From positions 13-64,012 of the forward strand of contig DAIMIK010000001.1 of the NCBI GenBank assembly GCA_036722795.1: a stretch of 64,000 nt of DNA, given 5' to 3'. Positions 13,130 to 30,507 of this stretch are shown here, one piece after another. Source of the DNA: Acidimicrobiales bacterium. Lineage in GTDB: Bacteria > Actinomycetota > Acidimicrobiia > Acidimicrobiales > RAAP-2. Below the pieces are notes generated by a model, which ran no database searches, was not told the DNA's origin, and saw only the letters and a program-made list of their open reading frames with translations. Made by a program: the position numbers and the translations under genes. Position 1 is the stretch's first letter; each line of letters begins with the position of its first letter.

Positions 13130-14167
13130 ATGGAGCTTCGTCCGAGCGAAGAGCAGCAGCAGCTGATCGACGCGTATGCAACCTTGTATGCCAAGGAGTC
13201 TTCATCGGGGCGGGTGCGAGCCGCCGAGCCGCTCGGCTTCGATCCGAACCTGTGGTCCCAGCTGGTCGGGATGGGGACGGTGAGCATGGCCGTCGACGAG
13301 GTCCACGGAGGCTGGGGCGCCTCCATGCTCGATCTCGCCCTTGTCGCTCAGGAGCATGGGCGGGCGCTCGGCTCCGCACCGCTCATCGAGATGCTGGTCG
13401 CGTGCCGGTTGCTGGCCCGGGTCGGCGGTGTGGCCGCGGGCGAGTTGCTGGGCTCCGCCCTCGCCGGTGACCGCCTGGTGGCGGTGGCACTCCGCCCACC
13501 TCGTGGGGGGGTCGCCCGTTTGGTTCCTGCAGGGGCGATTGCAACCGACCTCGTCGTACTGCACGACCGTGACCTCGTGGCGGTACCGGTCGGGGATGAC
13601 CGGGTCGTGCCCGAGAACGTCGGTTCGATGCCGCTGGCAGACATTCCCTTGTCGGGGTCGGCAATGGCTGCAGCCGTTACCCTCAGCCGTGGTGAGGATG
13701 CGTCCGCAGCGGTCGACGCCGCACTTGATGATTGGCTGGTGCTCACCGCCAATGCGCTGGCCGGCATCGCCCGTCGATCGGTCCAGATCGGCGTCGAGTA
13801 TGCCAAGGACCGTGAGGCGTTCGGCCAGAAGATCGGAGGGTTCCAGGCGGTGGGCCACCGTCTTGCCGACTGCGCGACGTCGGCCGCCGGTGCCGAGTTG
13901 CTGGCGCGTGAGGCAGCCTGGGCGGCGAGTGAGGAGCCCGATCGATTCGCCGAGCTGGCGGCGATGGCATTCGCGTTCGCCGCTGAGACAGCCCGCGACG
14001 CGAGCGATGCCGCCCTCCACTTCCACGGTGGCTACGGTTTCATGCTCGAGTACGACATCCAGCTCTACTACAGGCGGGCTCGGGCGTGGGCCAATGTGGT
14101 CATGAGCCCGGCGGCGGCATGCCAGCGAGTGGCCGACCGGCGTTACGGGCCGCGAGGTGCACCATGA
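13130..14167 (+). CDS. Acyl-CoA dehydrogenase, short (beta-type) subunit of a probable heteromeric ACAD
   Basis: Length is 345 aa. ACAD C-terminal motifs are present (YAKDREAFGQKIGGFQAV, HGGYGFMLEYD). Its stop overlaps the next ACAD start (ATGA at 14164-14167). Confidence 0.8.
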   Translation: MELRPSEEQQQLIDAYATLYAKESSSGRVRAAEPLGFDPNLWSQLVGMGTVSMAVDEVHGGWGASMLDLALVAQEHGRALGSAPLIEMLVACRLLARVGGVAAGELLGSALAGDRLVAVALRPPRGGVARLVPAGAIATDLVVLHDRDLVAVPVGDDRVVPENVGSMPLADIPLSGSAMAAAVTLSRGEDASAAVDAALDDWLVLTANALAGIARRSVQIGVEYAKDREAFGQKIGGFQAVGHRLADCATSAAGAELLAREAAWAASEEPDRFAELAAMAFAFAAETARDASDAALHFHGGYGFMLEYDIQLYYRRARAWANVVMSPAAACQRVADRRYGPRGAP

Positions 14168-15333
14168 TGGATTTCCGTCTCGGTGAAGCAAGCGACGAGC
14201 TCCGGGCCGAGGTCCGGGCGTTCCTCGAAGAGCGGGTGACCCGTGAGCTCGAGGAGCAGGTCTACCGAAGCGGGGTATCACACGATCCGGAGTTCACCCG
14301 GGCACTGGTCGAACGGGGGTGGATGGCACCCGGGTGGCCGGTCGAGCTCGGGGGTCGCGGACTCGATCCCATCGAGATGCTCGTCATCGGCGAGGAGCTG
14401 CGGTTCGCCGATGCTCCGACCTACGGCATCGGCACCACCATCATGGTGGCCACGGTCATCAGGCTGGCGGGTACCGAGGCCCAGAAGTCCGAGATCATCC
14501 CGAAGGCCCTCGCCGGTGAGATCGTGATGGTGCTGGGCTACAGCGAGCCCGAAGCAGGCTCGGACGTCGCCGCTGCAGCCACGAGGGCGGTGCGCGACGG
14601 CGACGAATGGGTGATCAACGGCCAGAAGATGTTCACCACCAATGCACAGATCGGCGACTACGTCTTCTTGCTGACCCGCACCAACCCGGATGTGGCCAAG
14701 CACAAAGGGCTGACGATGTTCCTCGTGCCCATGGACCAGCCAGGGGTGGAGGTACAGGCGGTGTACACGCTCTCGGGTGAACGCACCAACATCACCTACT
14801 ACAACGATGTTCGCGTCTCGGACGCTTGGCGCGTTGGAGAGGTCGACGAGGGTTGGACGACGATGACGGTGGCCCTGGCCACCGAGCACGCCGCCGGGTT
14901 TGCCGCTGCCATCGAGCGCCTCCTGGTCGAGGCCGAGGCGTGGGCCGCCGAGGCAGTGGACGATGACGGGGCCTCCCGCCTCGATGACGGAGCGGTGCGG
15001 GAGACCCTCGGCCGCATGGCCATCGATCTCGAGGTGTCCCGCCTGCTGCAGCGGCGGGTTGCCTGGATGGCCGAAGCCGGGGTCCCCGTCACCGCCGAAG
15101 GCCCGATGTCGAAGCTGTTCAGCTCCGAGGCGCTCAAGAAGCGGGCGCAGGAGATCGTGGAGATCGTGGGACCCGATGCCCTGCGCAGTTACTTCGATCC
15201 GACAGCACCCTCCCACGGCATCCTCGAGTACATGCTTCGCCACTCGGTTGGTACCACGATCTATGCGGGCACCAGTGAGATCCACCGGAACATGATCGCC
15301 CAGCGCGGGCTTGGCCTTCCCCGTACACGATGA
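14164..15333 (+). CDS. Acyl-CoA dehydrogenase (alpha-type partner)
   Basis: ATG at 14164 within ORF 14086..15333. Motifs include GYSEPEAGSDVAA, WVINGQKMFTT and IYAGTSEIHRNMIA. Its stop overlaps the thiolase start (ATGA at 15330-15333). Confidence 0.85.
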   Translation: MMDFRLGEASDELRAEVRAFLEERVTRELEEQVYRSGVSHDPEFTRALVERGWMAPGWPVELGGRGLDPIEMLVIGEELRFADAPTYGIGTTIMVATVIRLAGTEAQKSEIIPKALAGEIVMVLGYSEPEAGSDVAAAATRAVRDGDEWVINGQKMFTTNAQIGDYVFLLTRTNPDVAKHKGLTMFLVPMDQPGVEVQAVYTLSGERTNITYYNDVRVSDAWRVGEVDEGWTTMTVALATEHAAGFAAAIERLLVEAEAWAAEAVDDDGASRLDDGAVRETLGRMAIDLEVSRLLQRRVAWMAEAGVPVTAEGPMSKLFSSEALKKRAQEIVEIVGPDALRSYFDPTAPSHGILEYMLRHSVGTTIYAGTSEIHRNMIAQRGLGLPRTR

Positions 15334-17206: not shown

Positions 17207-17425
17207 GAACGGGCCTCGAAGCTAGCGTAGGTCGCGGGACGCCGGAGCTCGTGGGACGGGCGCCGTGCGGAGTGCCGGTTATCCGAGTATAGGGGCGGGC
17301 CCGGATCGCATCGTGCTGGTCACATGATCAAGAGTGGGCTTCTTTCGGCCCCTGTCGGTAGGCACCGTTGCCGGTAGGATCCCTTTCTGAGCGATGCCGG
17401 GGGGCGCGCTGTGGTTGGGAGGGTG

Positions 17426-19309
17426 ATGAGCTATCGATTCGGAATCGACGTCGGTGGGACGTTCACCGACTGTGTGCTCCTTCGGCCCGACGGGTCAGTG
17501 CTCCTGGAGAAGGCGCCCACCACTCCCGAGGACCAGAGCGTCGGGGTGCTGGCCGGGCTGGCGCAGCTCGCGGTGGCCGAAGGGCTCACCGTGGAGCAGA
17601 TGATGGCGCAGGCGCGGACCATCGTCCATGGGACGACGACCGGGGACAACACGATGATCCAGATGTCTGGAGCGCCGACCGGGCTGCTGGTCACCGAAGG
17701 GTTCCGCGATGAGATCGAGTTCCGGCGTTGCTACAAGGAGGAGATCTGGGATCCGGCGTTCCCCCCGCCCGACCCGATCGCCCGCAGGCGGGTTCGCCTC
17801 GAGATCCCGGAGCGGATGACCGCCGAGGGAGAGGTCGAAACAGCTCTCGACGAGCAGGCAGTGCGCAAGGCCGTTGCTCGGCTCCGAGCCTTCGGTGTCA
17901 CGTCGATTGCCGTCAGCTTTCTGCATTCCTACCTGAATCCCGCCCACGAGCTGCGGGCCGGCGAGCTGATCGTCGAGGAGTTTCCCGATGTCGAGATGGT
18001 CTCGCTGTCGCACCAGGTGCTACCCAAACCCCCGGAGTTCGAGCGGACCTCGACGACCCTGGTGAATGCCTACGTCGGACCGCCGATCGCCCGCTACCTG
18101 GGCAGGCTCTCCGATCGGCTGGCATCGCTCGGCTTCGATAGCGACCTGTTGGTGGCCACATCGGCGGGCGGCGTGGCCACCGCGGCAGCCGCCGCCCAGC
18201 GGGCGGTGGCGACCATCGGATCCGGTCCGACCGGTGGCGTCAATGCGGCAGCGCGCGCGGCCGCATCGACCGGGTTGGGTGACGTGGTGAGTGTCGACAT
18301 GGGAGGCACGAGCTACGACTTGTGCCTGATCCGGAATGGGCGTCCCGAAGTCAAGATGGATTGGAACTGGAGGCACCGGTACTGCATCGGCATACCCATG
18401 GTCGACATCTCGTCGGTCGGGGCCGGAGGAGGATCGATCATCTGGGTCGACGACGGGGTGCTCCAGGTCGGACCCCAGTCGGCGGGGAGCTCACCGGGGC
18501 CGGTCTGCTATCAGAGGGGAGGCACCCAACCGACGATCACCGACGCCGACCTCGTGCTCGGCCGACTCGAGCCCGGTGGATTCGCCAACGGCCGCATGGA
18601 ACTCGACCGAGAAGGTGCGCGGGCTGCGCTGGCCGAACTCGGCGGGCCACTCGGCATGAATGCCGAGGAGACGGCCGTCGCCGCCGTGCGTCTGGTGGAC
18701 GCCCACATGACGGATGCGGTCCGGCGGGTCCTGTCCCTTGCCGGTGCCGATCCGAGGTCACTCGATCTGGTTGCGTTCGGCGGAATGGGTGCGGTCCATG
18801 CCACGACGCAGGCTGCCGCGCTCGGGATGGCACACGCCCTCATTCCGCGTGGCGCTGCCGGCCTATCGGCGCTCGGGCTGCTCACTGCCGATCATGTGGT
18901 CGACGAGTCCCGGGGCTATGTGGTGCCATGGCAAGAGGCCGATCCCTCCCTACTCGAGCGGATGGCCGATGAGCTCAGCAGTGTCGCCACCGATGAGTTG
19001 CGGGTCGCAGGTGTGCCCGATGACAAGGTGCGCCTCCAGTGGTCGCTGCTGATGGTCTATCCCGGCCAGACCTTCGACGTCGCCATCCCGGTCGACTCGC
19101 CCACCGACGTCGAGGCTGCCGTAGGTGAGTTCCATCGGCGCAATGAGGAAGCCCGTCTCATCGAGGCCCGGGCGCAGGAGCCGGTGCTCCGCGGACTTCG
19201 ACTGACCGCCATCGGTGAGGTCGAGAAGATGGCGCCATCGTCCCTCGATCGATCCGACGATGAGCCCGCGCCCATCGGTCACCGGAGGATGTGGGTGGCG
19301 GGGGAGTAG
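17426..19309 (+). CDS. hyuA: Hydantoinase/oxoprolinase A-type subunit (HyuA family), truncated by an in-frame TAG
   Basis: ATG at 17426 follows GGGAGGG. The N-terminus is FGIDVGGTFTD. The ORF ends at TAG 19307-19309, and the same frame continues with family-like sequence (see next feature). Confidence 0.75.
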   Translation: MSYRFGIDVGGTFTDCVLLRPDGSVLLEKAPTTPEDQSVGVLAGLAQLAVAEGLTVEQMMAQARTIVHGTTTGDNTMIQMSGAPTGLLVTEGFRDEIEFRRCYKEEIWDPAFPPPDPIARRRVRLEIPERMTAEGEVETALDEQAVRKAVARLRAFGVTSIAVSFLHSYLNPAHELRAGELIVEEFPDVEMVSLSHQVLPKPPEFERTSTTLVNAYVGPPIARYLGRLSDRLASLGFDSDLLVATSAGGVATAAAAAQRAVATIGSGPTGGVNAAARAAASTGLGDVVSVDMGGTSYDLCLIRNGRPEVKMDWNWRHRYCIGIPMVDISSVGAGGGSIIWVDDGVLQVGPQSAGSSPGPVCYQRGGTQPTITDADLVLGRLEPGGFANGRMELDREGARAALAELGGPLGMNAEETAVAAVRLVDAHMTDAVRRVLSLAGADPRSLDLVAFGGMGAVHATTQAAALGMAHALIPRGAAGLSALGLLTADHVVDESRGYVVPWQEADPSLLERMADELSSVATDELRVAGVPDDKVRLQWSLLMVYPGQTFDVAIPVDSPTDVEAAVGEFHRRNEEARLIEARAQEPVLRGLRLTAIGEVEKMAPSSLDRSDDEPAPIGHRRMWVAGE

Positions 19310-19492
19310 CTCGACGTGCCGGCCTTCGACGCCGAGTCGATCCGTCCCGGAATGGTCATCGTCGGTGCTGCGGTGGTGACGAGCCCGTTCACCACGTTGG
19401 TGCTTCGACCGGGGGATCGTTGCCAGATGACGTCGGAAGGCGGCTTCCTGGTGGCGGTCGAGCCAGAGGAGGGAACCACGTCGGAGCAGTAG
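19310..19492 (+). pseudogene. hyuA: In-frame continuation of hyuA after the TAG; encodes the expected HyuA C-terminal segment
   Basis: Translation in the hyuA frame gives LDVPAFDAESIRPGMVIVGAAVVTSPFTTLVLRPGDRCQMTSEGGFLVAVEPEE, ending at TAG 19490-19492. It resembles the usual ...W.DTPVY.R..L.PG..I.GPAI.E....T.V..PG tail. Confidence 0.6.
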
Positions 19493-19549
19493 GCTCTCAC
19501 AGGAGAACGCCCCGTTCAGCCCGGGGCCTTCGGGACAAGGACAGGAAAC

Positions 19550-21025
19550 GTGAGTGCAGGGATCCTTTCGTGGGGGGCATATCTCCCGTATTGGCGACTG
19601 CAGCGAGCCGCCATCGGTTCGAGCCTCGGTGTGCCGTCCGGCCGGGGCACGCGATCGGTGGCCTCGTACGACGAGGACACGACCACGATGGGTGTCGAGG
19701 CTGCGCGGCGCGCCCTTGCCGACCTCGGGGGCCCGGTCCCGGCGGACCTCTTCTTCTCCACACCGGCGCCCGCGTATCTCGACAAGACCAACGCCACGGC
19801 GATCCATGCTGCGCTCGAATTGCCGATCTGGACCTCCGCCTACGACCTCATCGGTTCGGTCCGTTCGGCAGCCGGTGCACTCCGATCGGCTCATGCGATG
19901 GCCGGTGAGCAGCGGACCTTGGCAGTGGTGTCCGATCTGCGGACCGGCCTGGCTGGTGGGCCCGAAGAACGAGACAGTGGCGATGGTGCGGTGGCATTCG
20001 TGTTCGGAGACGGCACTGGTGGCGACAGGGTCGCCGCCGAACTGCTCTCCCACGCCGCCACCACCGCGGAGTTCCTCGATCGCTGGCGGACCCCAGGCGA
20101 TGATGACTCCCAGCTGTGGGAGGAGCGGTTCGGCCAAGAGGTATACGTGCCGTTGGTGGAGTCGGCCTGCACCGAAGCGCTGAAGAGGGCCGGCATTGTG
20201 GCATCGGAGGTGGATCACCTGGTGATCGCCGGACTGCACCAGCGGGCGGTGCAGGCATCGCGGACAGGGCTCGGCATCCGACCCGAGGCCACGATTGCCG
20301 ATCACGCGCCGTCCATCGGCAACCTGGGTGCCGCGCAGCCAGGGCTGATGCTGGCGGACATTCTCGAGCAGGCTGAGCCCGGAGCGCTGATCGCGGTGGT
20401 CGTGGTGGCCGACGGAGCGGACGTGTTCCTGTTCCGGACCACCTCGGAGCTTCCTTCGCTCCGCGCTGCACGAGGGGAGCGCGGCGTCCCGACCATCTCC
20501 GAGCTTGCTTCGGGAGGCGGCGACGATCTCCCCTACGCCCGGTTCCTCACCTGGAGGGGAGAGCTCCGCCGGGAGCCGCCTCGCCGTCCCGATCCCCAGC
20601 GACCTGGGGCACCGGCGACGTGGCGGTCGACCTCATGGAAGAGTGGGTTCGAGGCCAGCGACTGCATCGCCTGCGGCTTCCGTCACCTCCCTCCGGCCCG
20701 GGTGTGCCTCCGGTGCCGGGCCATCGACCAGATGGAGCGTGTTCGATTGGCCGACGCCGGTGGTCGGGTTGCGACGTTCACCGTCGATCGGCTGGCGTAC
20801 AGCCTGTCGCCACCGGTGGTCGGTGCCGTGGTGGACTTCGACGGTGGTGGCCGATTTCGCTGCGAGATGACCGATGTGGACCCCGACACCATGCGGGTGG
20901 GCTCGAGGGTCCAGATGGTGTTCCGTCGGCTCAACACCGCACAAGGCGTGCACAACTACTTCTGGAAGGCCCGGCCGGTCGAGACCGGGGGGTCCGTCGA
21001 GGGCATCGGTGGCGATCGGTCGTGA
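19550..21025 (+). CDS. HMG-CoA synthase-like (thiolase-fold) domain fused to a DUF35 Zn-ribbon/OB-fold domain
   Basis: The N-terminal ~330 aa align by eye to HMGS (SYDEDTTTMG, DSGDGAVAFVF, LDRWRTPG, IGNLGAA). There is no Cys at the nucleophile position. The C-terminus has CIACGFRHLPPARVCLRC followed by an OB-like region. Confidence 0.7.
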   Translation: MSAGILSWGAYLPYWRLQRAAIGSSLGVPSGRGTRSVASYDEDTTTMGVEAARRALADLGGPVPADLFFSTPAPAYLDKTNATAIHAALELPIWTSAYDLIGSVRSAAGALRSAHAMAGEQRTLAVVSDLRTGLAGGPEERDSGDGAVAFVFGDGTGGDRVAAELLSHAATTAEFLDRWRTPGDDDSQLWEERFGQEVYVPLVESACTEALKRAGIVASEVDHLVIAGLHQRAVQASRTGLGIRPEATIADHAPSIGNLGAAQPGLMLADILEQAEPGALIAVVVVADGADVFLFRTTSELPSLRAARGERGVPTISELASGGGDDLPYARFLTWRGELRREPPRRPDPQRPGAPATWRSTSWKSGFEASDCIACGFRHLPPARVCLRCRAIDQMERVRLADAGGRVATFTVDRLAYSLSPPVVGAVVDFDGGGRFRCEMTDVDPDTMRVGSRVQMVFRRLNTAQGVHNYFWKARPVETGGSVEGIGGDRS

Positions 21026-22224
21026 GCAGCAACGGGATCCGCGACAGAGTGGCAATCGTCGGTATGGGATGCACGCCGTTCGGCGAGCGCTGGGACAAGG
21101 GAGTGGACGACCTGCTGATCGACGCAACCAAGGACACCATCGCCTCGGCCGGGGTCACCGTCGACGACATCGATGCGTTCTGGTTGGGAACCATGGCTTC
21201 CGGGGTTTCCGGGGTGACGCTGTCCAAGCCGTTGAAGATCGACTACAAGCCGGTATCGAGGCTCGAGAACTTCTGTGCCACCGGATCGGAGGCATTCCGC
21301 AATGCCTGCTATGCGGTGGCATCGGGGGCGTACGACCTGGCCATGGCCATCGGGGTCGAGAAGTTGAAGGACTCGGGCTTCTCGGGACTCACCGGTGTCC
21401 GGCCGATCGGGGACGGAACCGATGCGGCACTGTCGTCCCCTGCTGCCTTTTCGTTCCTCGTACCGGCCTACTGTCACAAGTACGGCGTCGATCCCGATGA
21501 GCTCAAGCAGGTGATGAGTCGCATCGCTTGGAAGAACCACTGCAACGGCGCGGTGAACCCTCGTGCCCAGTACCGGAAAGAGGTGTCGATCGAGACGATC
21601 ACGAAGTCGCCGCTGATCGCCGGTCAACTCGGTGTGTTCGACTGCAGCGGGGTGAGCGACGGCTCGGCCGCCGCCATCGTCTGTAGGGTCGAGGACGCGT
21701 ACCGCTACACCGATCACCCTTTGTTCGTGAAGGCGCTGAGCTTCGTGGCCGGCCCCGGCGGTGGAGCGATGGATCCGGACTACGACTACACGACCTTTCC
21801 GGAGGTGGTGAGATCGGCCGAGGACGCCTACCGCCAGGCCGGCATCAGCGATCCGAGGTCGACGCTGGCCATGGCTGAGGTGCATGACTGCTTCACGGCA
21901 ACCGAGTTGGTGCTGATGGAGGACCTCGGCTTTTCCGAGCGGGGGCTGGGATGGAAGGATGTCCTGGCCGGCACGTTCGATCGCAACGGCGAACTGCCGG
22001 TGAATCCTGACGGAGGACTCAAGAGCTTCGGACACCCGATCGGAGCGTCAGGCCTGCGCATGCTGTTCGAATGCTGGCTGCAGCTGCGCGGCGAGGCTCC
22101 GCCGGAGCGGCAGATCGACTCGTTGGCACGGGGCCGGACGCTCGGGTTGACCCACAACCTCGGCGGTGCGCCGGGGGAGTGCGTCAGCTTCGTGTCGATC
22201 GTCGGGCCGGAGCCGTCGTCCTGA
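21022..22224 (+). CDS. SCP-x / archaeal-type thiolase (thiolase domain protein)
   Basis: GTG at 21022 overlaps the upstream stop (GTGA). Motifs include VAIVGMGCTPFG, the ENFCATGSEAF Cys, EVHDCF and FGHPIGASGLRM. Confidence 0.8.
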   Translation: MSSNGIRDRVAIVGMGCTPFGERWDKGVDDLLIDATKDTIASAGVTVDDIDAFWLGTMASGVSGVTLSKPLKIDYKPVSRLENFCATGSEAFRNACYAVASGAYDLAMAIGVEKLKDSGFSGLTGVRPIGDGTDAALSSPAAFSFLVPAYCHKYGVDPDELKQVMSRIAWKNHCNGAVNPRAQYRKEVSIETITKSPLIAGQLGVFDCSGVSDGSAAAIVCRVEDAYRYTDHPLFVKALSFVAGPGGGAMDPDYDYTTFPEVVRSAEDAYRQAGISDPRSTLAMAEVHDCFTATELVLMEDLGFSERGLGWKDVLAGTFDRNGELPVNPDGGLKSFGHPIGASGLRMLFECWLQLRGEAPPERQIDSLARGRTLGLTHNLGGAPGECVSFVSIVGPEPSS

Positions 22225-22271: not shown

Positions 22272-23468
22272 TCAGACGGAGACGGGGACGGGGACCCCCA
22301 TGAGACCGGCGAGGTTGCCGCCCATGATCTTGCGGACCACCTCGTCAGGCATCCCCTGCAGCTCATCGACGTAGGCGATGGGATCGCGTAGGCCCTCAGG
22401 GTGGGGGTAGTCGCTGCCGAACAGGACGTGATCGGCGCCCACGAGGTCCACCAGTGTGCCCAGGTCGTCCTCCCAGAACGGGTTCACGTACACGTTGCGG
22501 AGAAACGCGGCCACTGGATCCTCGGGGAACTCCTGGGGCATCTTGGCGTAGACATCGCCCAGGTCGTGGAGCAGATGGCCGACCCAATTGGCGCCGTTCT
22601 CGACTGCGGCGACCTTGAGGTCCGGGAACCGGGTGAATGCACCGTGGCAGACCAATGCGGTCATGGTGTCGCAGATGGGGCGTTTCCCCTGGGAGATCAT
22701 CCGGAAGGCGGAGGGTCGGAACGGGAGGAATTCCGAGCTCTCCTCCCACCAGTTGGCGATCTCGCTGTAGCCGCTGTCCGACGCGTGCATCCCCACCAGG
22801 ACCCCCGCATCCTGGATGCGGGACCAGATGGGATCGAACTCCGGAAGGCCCGGCGACCTGGTACCACGCAGGCCCGGAACCGGTGCCGGTCGGATGAGCA
22901 CGCAGCGGGCACCCCGCTCGAGGACCCATTCGAGCTCGGCAAGGGCCTTGTCGACGATCCCCATGCTGATGACCGGGGTGGCGAAGATCCGATCCTGGTA
23001 GTCGAACGTCCACGTCTCGTACATCCACTCGTTCAGGGCATGAACCACGGCGAGGATGAGGTCGGGGTCGTCCTTCATGCGCTCTTCGATGAGGCTGGCC
23101 AGGGTCGGGAACATGAGCGCCCGATCGATGCCGAGCTCGTCCATCAACCCGATGCGTGGTTCCGGGGACCGGAAGCCGGGGTGGCACTTGATGGGGTCAC
23201 CGATGATCTCCCGGTAGGACTTCCCCTCGGGATTACCGTGCCGGTAGTACTCCTCCTGCGCACCGGGGGCAGCGACGACATCGAAGGTGGGGTTGGGGAT
23301 GTAGTCGCTGATCGTCCCCCGGACCACGATCTTGGTCCGGCCGCGGACGTCGACGTAGTCGATCGCCTTCGCATACTGCTTGGGCAGGAACTTGGTCAGC
23401 GCCTCGCGGGTCTCGTACATGTGGTTGTCCGCATCGAAGACCGGAAAGTCGAGCGTTCGAGATGGCAC
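22272..23468 (-). CDS. Amidohydrolase-2 family metal-dependent hydrolase/decarboxylase-like protein
   Basis: GTG at 23468 follows AGGGGA, within ORF 22272..23693. The N-terminus has FDADNHMYE, and the C-terminus has LFGSDYPHPEG. Confidence 0.75.
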   Translation of the reverse strand: MPSRTLDFPVFDADNHMYETREALTKFLPKQYAKAIDYVDVRGRTKIVVRGTISDYIPNPTFDVVAAPGAQEEYYRHGNPEGKSYREIIGDPIKCHPGFRSPEPRIGLMDELGIDRALMFPTLASLIEERMKDDPDLILAVVHALNEWMYETWTFDYQDRIFATPVISMGIVDKALAELEWVLERGARCVLIRPAPVPGLRGTRSPGLPEFDPIWSRIQDAGVLVGMHASDSGYSEIANWWEESSEFLPFRPSAFRMISQGKRPICDTMTALVCHGAFTRFPDLKVAAVENGANWVGHLLHDLGDVYAKMPQEFPEDPVAAFLRNVYVNPFWEDDLGTLVDLVGADHVLFGSDYPHPEGLRDPIAYVDELQGMPDEVVRKIMGGNLAGLMGVPVPVSV

Positions 23469-23587
23469 AGGCTGTCCCCTTTGCTTCCCCCGGGGGCTTG
23501 CCAGGGACCGGTGGGCCCCGCAAACCACCTTGTTCCGAGTGTGACGTTCCGAGTGCGAGCCGCATAGAGCATCTCTCGAAACGAGAA

Positions 23588-23606
23588 TCACGTTATCACT
23601 ACGTGA
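23588..23606. promoter_or_regulatory. Inverted repeat TCACGT-N7-ACGTGA in the most AT-rich spot of a divergent intergenic region
   Basis: It sits between the amidohydrolase (minus, start 23468) and the small ORF (plus, start 23783). I read it as a candidate operator. Confidence 0.3.
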
Positions 23607-23782
23607 CGCCTGTCTCAACCGTCGATGACCGGGGTGGTGGCCGGGTCGGTGCCGTCCGGAATTGCGCCTTCGCCAGTCGTGCGCGGCCCCCACCTGGGCT
23701 GTTCCCCTATGGTACGGTCGCTGTGCTCGAGCACCGGTCGTTCGACGGAGCCGGGACTGTTCGGTGACGGGGGAGTTGCGAC

Positions 23783-27349: not shown

Positions 27350-29103
27350 TCACTGCTCGCGGCGATGCTTGCGCTCTGCTGCCGTCGCCGCGGCATCGAT
27401 GTCCACGGTCATGCCCTCCAGGGAGCCGACGATCACGACGCCGTAGTCGCGAAGCGCGCCTTCGATCGAGACATACTCGTCCCAGACGTCGTCGAGGACC
27501 GCCTGTGGATCGCGGTCGAGCAGGTCCCCCCATCCGCCGCCGCCCCCGAACTCGTAAACCAGTTGTTCGCCCGTCTCGAGCAGCAGATTGGCAACCGAGG
27601 GCGCCACCTCGACCGTCCCCTTCAGCACGCAGCGGTCAGGAGCACCGCTCAGGCCGCCGGCGATGCCGGGGTGGAGATGATGCTGGTTGACCACGTGCTG
27701 GTTCACATAGGTAGGGGTGCGGGCCTCCTTGACGAACAGGCTGCCGCAGGCACCGCGCCATTGACCCGGCCCCCCGAGTCCGTTCGATGGTTCCGGCCGC
27801 GGATGAAGTGGGGGAATAGGCCCTCGTTGAACTCGGCGGTGGCCTTGATGAGATTGCCCGAGGAGGCCGACAGCGCCCCCGACCCGTCGACACCCTTCAC
27901 GGCGATCACCAACCCGGCAGAGACCTCGCCCCCGTGGTCGAAGAAGGACCTCCCGGTCCGAGGGTCGAGGTCCCCCCACATCTGGCGCGGGCTACCGAAC
28001 TTGTAGGTCTGGGGGCTGCACCTCTCGGGGATGACGGCACTCAGCGCCACGGCGATGGCGTCGCTCACTTCGACTCCGGGGTGGTGGGTGCTGCTGGACA
28101 CCGGTTTGCCTTCCGTGGGATTCACGCAGCAGCCGAGCGGGGCGATGATCTCGATCGAGTCGAAGAACCCCTCGTTCTTGGCGATCGTCGGGTCCACCAT
28201 GCTGGCCAGTTGGGCCACGATATTGCCCCGAGTGTTGCCGAACGTCGACCACGCCTGGATCTCAGGGCGGTCGTCCGACCCGGTGAAGTCGACCACGAAG
28301 TGAGCGCCGCTCACGGTGCTGACATGGACCAAGATGTCGGTGTTCCCGGCAGGATCCGCGTCGAAGTAGGTGTCTGCCTCGTAGACGCCATCCGGCCATC
28401 GCTCGATCTCCCGCTGGAGCCTCCGGCGCGAGTCGTCGATCGACCATTCGACCGTGGCCCGTACGGTGTCCGCGCCGTGGTGGCGGGCGATCTCGTGGAG
28501 GCGGGCCACCCCGAGCTGTGCCGCCCCGACCTGTGAGCGGAGATCTCCGATGAAGCCGGACAGCCGGTTGTTGGCCCGCATGAGGGCAACGACGTCGCGG
28601 CGCCCCTTCCCACCGTCGATGATCTTGAGCGCAGGGTAACGGGTGCCCTCGGACCAGATGTCCTTGGCGAACACGTTGTACCCACCGGCCATTGCTCCGC
28701 CGGTGTCACCGTGATGGCACTGGATCGATGGGATGAGCAGCAGGGCACCGTCATCGTCGAAGACCGGCGCGAACACGTTGAAGTCGGGGAGGTGACCACC
28801 GCCGTGGTAGGGGTCGTTGGCCACGATCACGTCGCCAGGTGTCAGGTCGTCGCCGAAGAGGTCGAGGGCGTACTTCACCGGGAGGGTGCTGGACAGCATG
28901 AACTGGGGGATCCCGACGGACAGTGCCGCCAACCGGCCGGCGGCGTCGAGGATGGTGGCGTTCCGCTCGTTCGACTGGTTGAGAATGGGTGTCGTGGCGG
29001 TCCGCGAGATGTAGGTCGCCATCTCGAAGCAGACCGTCTCCATCGCCGAGCGGACGACCTCGGCTGTGATCGGGTCGATGTCCATCGCTGTCGAAGCGGC
29101 CAT
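27350..29103 (-). pseudogene. hyuB: Hydantoinase B/oxoprolinase (HyuB family) with a -1 frameshift
   Basis: The N-terminal ~445 aa lie in the frame of ORF 27703..30228, starting at ATG 29103 after GGAGG (MAASTAMDIDPITAEV). The C-terminal ~140 aa lie in the frame of ORF 27350..27979 (GPGQWRGACGS...GGGGWGD). The two frames join at a C6 run at 27770-27775. Total length is not a multiple of 3. Confidence 0.75.
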
Positions 29104-29288
29104 GGTCGTCCTCCGTGGTCCGTGCCCGCACCCCGTGCCCTCACCCCGTGCACCGGTACTCCTCCGGTGAGTATGGCACGAACCCCCGCAACCTGTCGGC
29201 ACGGCCGCCCGGATTGCGCTACAACGTTGTGGCATGTCGTCCACCGTCATCAGGGCCTCCGGGCCGGCCGTGGCCGGAGCGGGACGCG

Positions 29289-29316
29289 CCCGCCCGCCCG
29301 CAGTCGGGCGGGCGGG
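29289..29316. promoter_or_regulatory. Perfect 12-bp GC-only hairpin, (CCCG)3 cagt (CGGG)3
   Basis: CCCGCCCGCCCG at 29289-29300 pairs with CGGGCGGGCGGG at 29305-29316. It ends 30 nt upstream of the ACAD GTG at 29347. Confidence 0.4.
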
Positions 29317-29346
29317 GTGCCACCCGGTCCCGGCGGGGAGGTGGAC

Positions 29347-30507
29347 GTGAACCTCTCCCTCACCTATGACGAGCGCCGCTTCCGGGACGAGATCCGGTCC
29401 TGGCTGGAGGCCAACGTGGAGCCCGCTCCAGAATTCGAGTCGTTCGACCACGAGTTCGAGTGGGGCCGCCGGTGGCAGGCCAGGCTGGCGGCCGACCGGT
29501 GGGTCGGCATCCACTGGCCCACTGAGTACGGCGGACGCGGCGCCTCTCCGCTCGAGGGGGCCATCTTCAACTTGGAGTACGCCCGCTCGCGCGCACCCCA
29601 ACCGGTCAACCGCACCGGGGTGAACCTCGTCGGCCCGACGCTGCTGGCCCACGGCGACGACGTCCAGCGTGACCGGTGGCTGCGGGGCATCCTCAGCGCC
29701 GAAGAGATCTGGTGCCAGCTCTTCAGTGAGCCGGGTGCCGGATCCGACCTGGCCTCGCTCACCACCCGGGCGACCGAGGTGGACGGTGGATGGCTGCTCG
29801 ACGGCCAGAAGGTGTGGACGAGCTATGCACAGTACGCACGGTGGGGCCTCGCCCTGGTGCGCACCGACCCCGACGCACGGCGCCACCGGGGCATCTCGTG
29901 TGTGGTGGTCGACATGGAGGCCCCCGGCATCGAGGTGCGACCGCTGATGACGATGACCACCGAGGCCGAGTTCAACGAGGTGTTCTTCGAAGAGGCGTTC
30001 GTACCCGCCGACCATGTCATCGGCGGCCTGCACAACGGGTGGTCGGTCGCCAACACCACGCTGGCCCACGAGCGTGGCACCACGTTCCCCTTCAAGGAGC
30101 AGGTGGTGCACGAGGTCTACCTCGAGCAGCTCCTCGACCTGGCCGCGGTATCGGGCGCGCTCGACGACGAGCTCGTGGCCGACCAGCTGGTCGACGCCTA
30201 CGTGAGGCTCCGGGTCCTCCGGCTCCACAATTGGAGGACGATGACTCGCCTGGGCCGGGGCATCGAGCCGGGGCCGGAGTCGAGCGTGGTCAAGCTGACA
30301 TGGACCGACATGACCCAGCAGCTCTCCGATGCCGGACTGGCGGTGCTCGGAGACGCGTCACCGCTGTGGGGGCCCGCCGAGGCCAACCCGGCGCGGGGCA
30401 AGTGGCAGCGACAGTGGCTGTGGAGCAAGGCGGCGTCCATCGCCGGGGGGACCTCGGAGATCCAGCGCACCATCATCGGCGAGCGGATCCTCGGCCTGCC
30501 CCGATGA
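29347..30507 (+). CDS. Acyl-CoA dehydrogenase family protein
   Basis: GTG at 29347 follows GGGGAGG, within ORF 28711..30507. Motifs include WPTEYGGRGAS, FSEPGAGSDLASL and GGTSEIQRTIIGE. Confidence 0.85.
   Translation: MNLSLTYDERRFRDEIRSWLEANVEPAPEFESFDHEFEWGRRWQARLAADRWVGIHWPTEYGGRGASPLEGAIFNLEYARSRAPQPVNRTGVNLVGPTLLAHGDDVQRDRWLRGILSAEEIWCQLFSEPGAGSDLASLTTRATEVDGGWLLDGQKVWTSYAQYARWGLALVRTDPDARRHRGISCVVVDMEAPGIEVRPLMTMTTEAEFNEVFFEEAFVPADHVIGGLHNGWSVANTTLAHERGTTFPFKEQVVHEVYLEQLLDLAAVSGALDDELVADQLVDAYVRLRVLRLHNWRTMTRLGRGIEPGPESSVVKLTWTDMTQQLSDAGLAVLGDASPLWGPAEANPARGKWQRQWLWSKAASIAGGTSEIQRTIIGERILGLPR

Follow-up and report, generated by a model that had tools for sequence, protein, structure and literature searches.

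Within a 64,000-nucleotide stretch of DNA from an Acidimicrobiales bacterium (contig DAIMIK010000001.1; hereafter the window), two overlapping genes encode a hydroxymethylglutaryl-coenzyme A (HMG-CoA) synthase (HMGS)-like domain fused to a DUF35 module (gene A) and an SCP2-type thiolase (gene B). We propose, with a probability of roughly 0.72, that gene B is a degradative 3-ketoacyl-CoA thiolase and that the fused gene A protein is its non-catalytic scaffold partner. Three of the four residues of the Glu-Cys-His-Asn (E-C-H-N) tetrad of HMGS, namely the nucleophile and both acid/base residues, are lost in gene A, with the Asn kept. The pair is real but not new, being one more case of a very common bacterial pairing, a single member of which was characterized biochemically in 2026. 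What our analysis adds is that the family is very large, that it is under purifying selection, that its coupling to the thiolase is near-invariant, and that its gene setting is catabolic.

Loss of three tetrad residues in the HMGS-like domain

Residues 2-297 of gene A match the NCBIfam model of archaeal HMGS, PRK04262, with 117 bits (E 7e-34), and other HMGS and FabH models score the protein far lower. The best sequence match in the PDB is 6esq_I (phmmer, E 8.6e-14), the HMGCS chain of the thiolase/HMGCS/DUF35 complex of Methanothermococcus thermolithotrophicus, and the PhlA-type subunits 9skh_A and 5m3k_A come next. The AlphaFold2 model (mean predicted local distance difference test score, pLDDT, 78; HMGS-like core mostly 80-97) gave the same result in Foldseek, where 6esq_I was the top match with a TM-score normalized to the target (TMt) of 0.79, followed by PhlA (9skh, 5mg5, 5m3k), MucA (9vbo, 9vbt) and then bacterial MvaS and FabH. 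An HMGS-like N-terminal domain, as proposed in a first-pass annotation of this DNA, is therefore borne out by profile, sequence and fold. Gene A stays below the cut-offs of the HMGS models (117 versus 244 bits for PRK04262, 57.7 versus 353 for TIGR00748, and 18 versus 360 for TIGR01835).

Catalytic positions were read from a MAFFT alignment of the query with 93 diverse full-length family representatives, the archaeal HMGCS and PhlA, and from a set of 45 close sequences, query included, that are at least 59% identical. In the first alignment PhlA carries C/G/Q/D at the archaeal E82/C114/H238/N270 columns, which are the substitutions of the archaeal HMGS quadruple mutant mut4 (E82C/C114G/H238Q/N270D; PMC12960953), and this agreement validates the numbering of the tetrad.

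The column of the catalytic Glu, E82, is occupied in gene A by Pro72; the diverse representatives have Thr (68), Ala (12) or Ser (10) and never Glu, and Pro is found in all 45 close sequences. At the column of the nucleophile, C114, gene A has Val104, and the representatives have Leu (49), Val (10), Pro (7) and others, with Val in 38 of the 45 close sequences. The column of the catalytic His, H238, holds Ala227 in gene A and Ser (24), Ala (22), Tyr (20) and others, never His, among the representatives (Ala in 29/45 close sequences). Only the fourth position is retained: Asn258 aligns with N270, where Asn is present in 29/93 diverse and 45/45 close sequences, so the likeness of the IGNLGAA segment to HMGS that had been noticed by eye is genuine. 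The Cys-to-Val replacement had likewise been read directly from the sequence, together with the absence of any Cys from the first ~200 residues. Both readings hold, as Val104 aligns with C114 of 6esq_I, its codon (19859-19861) having been given correctly, and the protein has its first Cys at residue 207, and the suggested check of conservation in relatives found Cys in 0/93 sequences at this column. The catalytic Glu, in contrast, had been placed in the SYDEDTTT segment, and this assignment was mistaken: E42 belongs to a DED motif common to HMGS, PhlA and the gene A family, and is not the equivalent of E82. We also considered His230, three residues past Ala227, as a replacement for the catalytic His and rejected it, as its column is H/N/S/R in the family and Asn in HMGS.

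The identification of gene A as a genuine HMG-CoA synthase (EC 2.3.3.10) was rejected, since the model cut-offs are missed and the catalytic Glu, Cys and His are replaced. To judge from the aligned sequences, no member of the gene A fusion family can be an HMGS.

Conservation within the domain is nonetheless high at other positions. Alignment A1 (40 sequences, 30-81% identical to the query) has 20 invariant positions in the HMGS-like domain, and the domain is clearly under purifying selection. The residues conserved in the family are D41-E42-D43, D99, R105, D129, R131, E140, G144-D145, W179-R180, R193, G257 and G260. Nearly all of them are either shared with HMGS and/or PhlA or part of the thiolase fold's ancestral GDGA strand motif, which argues that they represent structural inheritance and not a new active site. 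No family-specific conserved polar constellation pointing to a new activity was found among the conserved residues of the domain.

The linker and DUF35 module

In the model of gene A, residues 335-363, at the end of the linker and the start of the next module, are of low confidence. Over residues 357-477 the protein matches 6esq_E, which is the DUF35 chain in the archaeal complex (phmmer, E 1.1e-6), and PhlB (5m3k_B) was matched as well; the Pfam family OB_ChsH2_C (PF01796) scores 44.9 bits on residues 404-459 against a gathering cut-off of 27.1. The C-terminal DUF35 module of the first-pass annotation thus stands, with its zinc ribbon and OB fold, and only the spacing between the two CxxC pairs needs correction, from 11 residues to 10. 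Each ribbon Cys is kept in 87-88% of 94 diverse sequences, and all are invariant in alignments A1 and A3. The zinc-ribbon family PF12172 was recorded for several homologs, and no match to it was reported for the gene A protein. Measured against the query, the 93 diverse representatives have a median identity of 44% in DUF35, 37% in the HMGS-like domain and 35% in the linker. The matches to 6esq_I and 6esq_E lie on one polypeptide, and with Pro72, Val104 and Ala227 in the tetrad columns, the earlier description of a dead HMGS half fused to DUF35 was correct.

An intact thiolase encoded by gene B

Gene B scores 591.6 bits against the NCBIfam model PRK06157 (cut-off 403) and has the Pfam domains Thiolase_N and Thiolase_C_1. 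Its nearest PDB chains, 7yvy_A, 4yzo_A and 6esq_A, are archaeal-type thiolases matched at ~1e-52, whereas the match to PhlC is much weaker (~1e-22), as is that to 6ok1 (1.3e-17). The SCP2-type assignment and the intact Cys and His motifs of the earlier reading were confirmed by alignment to 6esq_A, which places Cys85 and the H288-D-C-F motif opposite their counterparts. Among syntenic thiolases, the Cys85 column is Cys in 61/61, HDCF is kept in 55/56 aligned sequences, and GHP is kept in 54-56.

Two other identities for the pair were tried and rejected. Gene B reaches 114 bits against the BbsB model, whose cut-off is 750, so the pair is not BbsAB, and an aldolase of the Ltp2/Sal type is rejected by the retained thiolase Cys.

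Pairing and genomic neighborhood

The pairing was followed in 80 loci, found with a closer 13-sequence alignment. This set is biased to relatives with 52% identity or more, mainly from Actinomycetota, and distant members entered the analysis via plasmid records only. As a gene caller based on GC at third codon positions (GC3) missed the pair in ~20 of the 80 loci, adjacency was taken from tblastn. In at least 74/80 loci the gene immediately downstream of the fusion is a homolog of gene B, and three of the exceptions are contig ends. The two genes are separated by 60 nt or less in 53/80 loci and by ~400 nt or less in at least 74/80. The thiolase is the more conserved partner, with a median identity of 75% versus 57% for the fusion.

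For the wider setting, called genes within ±8 kb of the pair were clustered and representatives annotated. The most frequent neighbors were acyl-CoA dehydrogenases (ACADs; 38/80 loci), acyl-CoA synthetases (28/80) and short-chain dehydrogenases/reductases (SDRs; 27/80), followed by enoyl-CoA hydratases (18/80), Amidohydrolase_2 proteins (15/80), second thiolases and branched-chain-type ABC transporters (13/80 each) and aldehyde dehydrogenases (ALDHs; 11/80). The surroundings are variable, yet recurrently beta-oxidation-like.

Individual gene orders in annotated records are of the same kind. In Variovorax paradoxus the order is SDR, MaoC hydratase, fusion, thiolase, ACAD and CoA transferase; on pDK3 of Rhodococcus sp. 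DK17 it is fusion, thiolase, thiolase, SDR and crotonase; and on the Natrialba magadii plasmid pNMAG02 (L083, 3814-8670) it is thiolase, fusion, 3-hydroxyacyl-CoA dehydrogenase and ACAD. On the Mycobacterium avium plasmid pP7a (L084, 1685-11542) the pair ends an operon with three enoyl-CoA hydratases, a CoA ligase, the alpha and beta subunits of a ring-hydroxylating dioxygenase, and a second thiolase. We take this operon to resemble the ibuprofen ipf cluster (CoA ligase, dioxygenase, SCPx thiolase, DUF35). By analogy, there are hints that some members of the fusion family may act on aryl-substituted acyl-CoAs.

Comparison with characterized complexes

A published survey found 1,030 bacterial loci with co-located genes for HMGS, ACAT (acetyl-CoA acetyltransferase) and DUF35, 1,001 of which have no adjacent secondary-metabolism genes (PMC12960953). 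One of these loci, from Pseudomonas fluorescens, was characterized in the same work and encodes a fused HMGS-DUF35 in which the E-C-H-N tetrad is missing, together with an ACAT that carries Cys, HDxF and GHx (Nat Commun 2026, PMC12960953). The complex cleaved acetoacetyl-CoA, and it formed neither HMG-CoA nor acetoacetyl-CoA from acetyl-CoA; the substitution H294Y in the HDxF motif of the ACAT abolished cleavage (PMC12960953). That study also added the MucABC structure, reported that without their partners the thiolase subunits of such complexes are insoluble or lack activity, and viewed the P. fluorescens complex as an "evolutionary intermediate" that is not yet recruited (PMC12960953).

Our pair shares with this PfACAT/HMGS-DUF35 complex the fused HMGS-like-DUF35 polypeptide, the tetrad loss, the adjacent thiolase with Cys/HDxF/GHx, and the absence of polyketide synthase (PKS) or nonribosomal peptide synthetase (NRPS) neighbors. 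On this last point, Pfam scans of 46 further open reading frames (ORFs), picked by length and codon-position GC and covering most of the 64-kb window, found no PKS or NRPS and only acyl-CoA metabolism, hydantoinase, ALDH, P450 and similar families. Every sequence-level feature of the published description is present here, the two having been compared by description and not by sequence. The first-pass annotation had allowed that the fusion might belong to an already characterized enzyme family, and this is largely the case, given the diagnostic features common to both complexes (PMC12960953). There are also differences: gene A keeps Asn258 and has lost three of the four tetrad residues, whereas the Pseudomonas protein lost all four; the Pseudomonas system is written with the thiolase first, while here the fusion gene comes first with a 4-nt overlap; and the host is an Acidimicrobiales-like actinobacterium instead of P. 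fluorescens.

The suspected kinship with the archaeal thiolase/HMGS/DUF35 complex was also confirmed, as subunits of 6ESQ are among the closest structures. The HMGS-like and DUF35 modules match the archaeal complex (6ESQ/6ET9) best in both sequence and fold, and the thiolase of this complex is among the three best, nearly tied, matches of gene B, with the same Cys, HDCF and GH. The archaeal complex consists, however, of three separate polypeptides with an active HMGCS (E82, C114, H238, N270) and channels acetoacetyl-CoA into mevalonate synthesis, whereas gene A is dead and fused.

A dead HMGS-like subunit with a DUF35 bridge is also found in PhlACB (PpATase, 5M3K/5MG5; CsATase, 9SKH) and MucABC (SmaATase, 9VBO/9VBT), where only the thiolase-like subunit is catalytic and every subunit is needed for activity. 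In the Friedel-Crafts acylase PhlACB, the HMGS-like PhlA has Gly115 in place of the Cys and Cys83 in place of the Glu, Cys88 of PhlC is the sole catalytic Cys, and all three subunits are required; dimers of PhlA and of PhlC are bridged by the DUF35 protein PhlB within a dodecamer, Phl(A2C2)2B4 (PMC6392133). Neither PhlA nor MucA is catalytic in the solved complexes (PMC6392133, PMC12960953). These systems differ from ours in having separate subunits, in lacking HDxF in PhlC and MucB, in transferring acetyl groups to carbon acceptors, and in their location in polyketide/NRPS clusters; gene B keeps HDCF and sits among beta-oxidation genes.

Two further groups share parts of the architecture. BbsAB benzoylsuccinyl-CoA thiolase (7PXP) has an SCP2-type thiolase with HDxF that needs a DUF35 zinc-finger partner, and this and other SCP2-type thiolase/DUF35 pairs carry out degradative thiolysis of unusual 3-ketoacyl-CoAs without an HMGS-like module. 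In Ltp2-ChsH2(DUF35) and Sal-Shy, as proposed here, a thiolase fold docks on a DUF35 that is fused to a partly inert partner in a lipid catabolic cluster. Ltp2 and Sal are retro-aldolases with repurposed thiolase residues and a DUF35 fused to a MaoC hydratase, whereas the triad of gene B is intact and the DUF35 partner domain here is HMGS-like; from this group, 6ok1 gave the weak match to gene B noted above.

Proposed function and alternative explanations

In the mechanism that we favor, genes A and B would form a two-protein thiolase complex, probably of about 4+4 subunits, as suggested by homologs and synteny. Gene B would be its only catalyst, with Cys85 as the nucleophile, the HDCF loop as acid/base and the GHP histidine, and would cleave a 3-ketoacyl-CoA with CoA as the final reaction of a catabolic pathway resembling beta-oxidation. 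Gene A should have no Claisen chemistry of its own, since the Glu, Cys and His of HMGS are replaced by Pro, Val and Ala. Its DUF35 module is expected to clamp the thiolase dimer to a dimer of HMGS-like domains, as DUF35, PhlB and MucC do in the solved complexes, and the HMGS-like domain may keep the thiolase soluble and correctly shaped, probably also forming one wall of a shared CoA/substrate chamber. Thiolysis without HMG-CoA synthesis is carried over by analogy from the P. fluorescens relative, and, to judge by the neighborhood, a bulky or branched 3-ketoacyl-CoA may be the substrate. The breadth of the family, its conservation, the near-invariant thiolase pairing and the recurrent beta-oxidation setting lead us to argue for an established catabolic enzyme rather than the unrecruited "evolutionary intermediate" of the published interpretation (PMC12960953).

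Several points weigh against this reading. The complex is predicted from homologs and synteny. Purifying selection on the HMGS-like domain fits a scaffold, but it is compatible with a ligand-binding role too, and Asn258 and Pro72 are invariant among close relatives. Beta-oxidation genes are abundant in such genomes, so the neighborhood signal may in part be background.

An HMGS-like domain with a new ligand-binding or catalytic role, such as acyl holding, chamber gating, or Cys-independent hydrolysis or decarboxylation, would account for a domain that is kept without decay over a very wide phylogenetic range. The conserved charged residues R105, R131, D129, E140 and D145 lie in stretches that in HMGS make up the active-site region, the Acidimicrobiales clade shows no variation at Asn258 or Pro72, and the cavity of PhlA is contiguous with the PhlC active site in PhlACB (PMC6392133). 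We nevertheless regard such a role as distinctly unlikely: nearly all the conserved residues, including the ancestral GDGA strand motif, also occur in HMGS and/or PhlA, the four positions that were once catalytic differ freely among family members, and PhlA and MucA make no catalytic contribution in the solved complexes (PMC6392133, PMC12960953). Of the two possibilities raised in the first-pass annotation, a scaffold or a new activity, the former thus fits, with variable tetrad columns and non-catalytic PhlA and MucA, and the latter lacks the residue constellation it would call for. A more specific idea, that the former HMGS active-site cavity serves as a binding chamber or gate for bulky acyl groups (alicyclic, aryl or branched 3-ketoacyl-CoAs) and that the fusion sets the specificity of an otherwise generic thiolase, is in our view unlikely, though a little easier to accept. 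It would explain why the dead domain persists in thousands of lineages. If true, it would mean that "specificity-by-pseudoenzyme" thiolases are widespread and unrecognized in xenobiotic, terpenoid or steroid catabolism, and that the domain is no mere relic of evolution.

The thiolase could also work in the biosynthetic direction, condensing an acyl-CoA with acetyl-CoA in reverse beta-oxidation or in fatty-acid/polyketide-like synthesis, as Sulfolobus KT/DUF35 does, with the fusion recruiting downstream enzymes. Archaeal KT/DUF35 pairs are indeed synthetic, with DUF35 recruiting a reductase and a dehydratase (bioRxiv 10.1101/2024.07.05.601840), the closest thiolase structures to gene B are archaeal acetoacetyl-CoA-forming enzymes, and SDR genes frequently adjoin the pair. 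We consider this improbable. As the HMGS half is inactive, there is no exergonic step to pull an unfavorable condensation, and the P. fluorescens relative cleaved acetoacetyl-CoA and formed none from acetyl-CoA (PMC12960953). The neighbors are acyl-CoA dehydrogenases, CoA ligases, CoA transferases, transporters and TetR/LysR regulators, in some cases on catabolic megaplasmids, and no enoyl-CoA reductase or biosynthetic genes were seen in the neighborhoods surveyed.

Least probable, and very much so, is a cofactor-independent C-acyltransferase (Friedel-Crafts acylase) of the PhlACB/MucABC type with a phenolic or tetramic-acid acceptor, even though the three-module architecture with a dead HMGS-like subunit is the same, PhlA, PhlB and PhlC are significant PDB matches, and Amidohydrolase_2 genes recur nearby, including one in the window (22272-23693). 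The Amidohydrolase_2 family includes phenolic-acid decarboxylases. PhlC and MucB, however, lack HDxF and have specialized acceptor-binding residues, while gene B and all but one of its aligned syntenic relatives keep HDCF; gene B is also much closer to archaeal thiolases (~1e-52) than to PhlC (~1e-22), and no PKS or NRPS gene is present in the scanned ORFs of the window.

Family distribution and public annotation

A scan of 1.84 billion representatives at 50% identity returned 3,102 proteins with E<=1e-3, of which 588 reach E<=1e-30, and most of the best 150 matches are full-length fusions of 450-500 aa. In a word-indexed homolog search, at least 7,973 of 8,000 candidates reached E<=1e-5. Actinobacterial members occur in Acidimicrobiia, Streptomyces, Frankia, Mycobacteriales and Rhodococcus, and further bacterial members in Rokubacteria, Chloroflexi, Verrucomicrobia, Burkholderiales, Sphingomonadales and a deltaproteobacterium, as well as in the Bacillales genera Falsibacillus and Effusibacillus. 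Among the proteobacterial members are Variovorax (35.6% identity), Achromobacter and Novosphingobium; a search seeded with the Variovorax protein returned Achromobacter, Phreatobacter and Xanthobacteraceae, and no named Pseudomonas among the top 120. The dead fusion exists in Archaea too, as the Natrialba magadii plasmid encodes a fused homolog of 481 aa (26% identity) with Ser/Thr/Gln/Asp at the tetrad columns, annotated as "zinc ribbon domain-containing protein".

The practical value of these results lies in annotation, because the fusion family is systematically mis-annotated as HMG-CoA synthase. Public names include "hydroxymethylglutaryl-CoA synthase" (JGI), "HMG-CoA synthase family protein", "FabH C-terminal domain(-containing) protein" and "OB-fold domain-containing protein", and the thiolase partner is called "acetyl-CoA acetyltransferase". 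Combined, the HMGS and acetyl-CoA acetyltransferase labels could create a false start of the mevalonate pathway in metabolic reconstructions of metagenome-assembled genomes. A literature search on the physiological role of the fused family found nothing beyond PMC12960953.

Layout of the gene pair

The window is high-GC DNA (66-75%), and its closest relatives are uncultured Acidimicrobiales. The ORF coordinates and the GTGA overlap given in the first-pass annotation were reproduced (Table 1), and this overlap makes translational coupling of genes A and B probable. The start of gene A is supported by homologs of 488-491 aa that span 100% of the protein, and SD-like (Shine-Dalgarno-like) AAGGA and AGGA sequences lie upstream of its GTG, at 19537-19546; its codon-position GC is 0.71/0.56/0.79. 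The start of gene B is fixed by the PRK06157 alignment, which spans positions 2-398 of 400.

Table 1. Coordinates of genes A and B, their modules and key residues within the window
Feature	Position	Strand	Basis
Gene A, HMGS-like-DUF35 fusion protein, 491 aa, GTG start	19550..21025	+	ORF; full-cover homologs; codon-position GC
HMGS-like (thiolase-fold) domain, residues 1-298, catalytically degenerate	19550..20443	+	PRK04262, phmmer, Foldseek
Pro72 (in STPAP), column of catalytic Glu E82 (GSES motif)	19763..19765	+	MAFFT alignment
Val104, column of nucleophile Cys C114	19859..19861	+	Alignment including 6esq_I
Ala227, column of catalytic His H238	20228..20230	+	MAFFT alignment
Asn258 (in IGNLGAA), column of N270; sole retained tetrad residue	20321..20323	+	MAFFT alignment
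Linker, ~58 aa, residues 299-356, with conserved segment (Y329, L333, W335, R346, P347)	20444..20617	+	Conservation
DUF35 module (zinc ribbon and OB fold), residues 357-478	20618..20983	+	phmmer, Pfam
Zinc-ribbon motif C372-x2-C375-x10-C386-x2-C389, all four Cys present	20663..20716	+	Sequence
GTGA, gene B start codon overlapping gene A stop codon TGA	21022..21025	+	Sequence
Gene B, SCP2-type thiolase, 400 aa, GTG start	21022..22224	+	PRK06157, Pfam, PDB matches
Nucleophile Cys85 (ENFCATG)	21274..21276	+	Aligned to 6esq_A active-site Cys (veaaCasg)
H288-D-C-F motif of SCP2-type/archaeal thiolases	21883..21894	+	Aligned to HDCF of 6esq_A
G337-H-P motif (catalytic His)	22030..22038	+	Aligned to GH of 6esq_A and 7yvy_A

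Other genes in the window

The density of acyl-CoA metabolism genes between 9600 and 60000 is exceptional, with at least eight acyl-CoA dehydrogenases, of which an adjacent pair (13130-14167 and 14086-15333) resembles heteromeric alpha/beta ACADs. The same region contains four AMP-dependent ligases, two family-III CoA transferases and one of family I, several hydratases and SDRs, a P450, a luciferase-like monooxygenase, two ALDHs and two amidohydrolase_2 genes, and looks like a large catabolic region of the lipid, terpenoid or steroid type. GC content drops to 0.66-0.68 over ~8-30 kb (8001-30000), compared with 0.70-0.75 on both flanks, and this lower-GC block contains the thiolase pair and its catabolic neighbors. 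Because of this dip, the block may have been acquired horizontally, as an island.

Directly upstream of gene A is a hydantoinase/oxoprolinase A-type gene (17411-19492, plus strand) with an in-frame TAG at 19307-19309. Past this codon the frame stays open for another 61 codons, up to a TAG at 19490-19492, and this extension encodes the conserved C-terminus; an ortholog that is 81% identical (locus L050) has Trp (TGG) at the matching codon. Possible causes of the internal TAG are a nonsense mutation that makes the gene a pseudogene, an error in sequencing or assembly, and read-through. The long reading of this gene leaves a gap of 57 nt to gene A.

The A-like gene at 17411-19492 and a hydantoinase B-like gene (27703-29079, minus strand) flank the thiolase pair, ~8 kb apart and on opposite strands. 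The hydantoinase A/B family includes acetone and acetophenone carboxylases, and the two genes are usually adjacent. A route from ketone carboxylation to 3-ketoacyl-CoA thiolysis is conceivable. HyuA homologs are found near the pair in 2/80 loci and HyuB homologs in 6/80, so the hydantoinase link to the pair is local. The B-like gene lies within an 841-aa ORF (27703-30228, minus strand) whose Hydantoinase_B match is confined to the C-terminal 460 residues. The upstream part of this ORF overlaps a plus-strand ORF (28711-30507) whose C-terminal 380 residues are an acyl-CoA dehydrogenase, and the true gene starts lie well inside both of these mechanically called ORFs.

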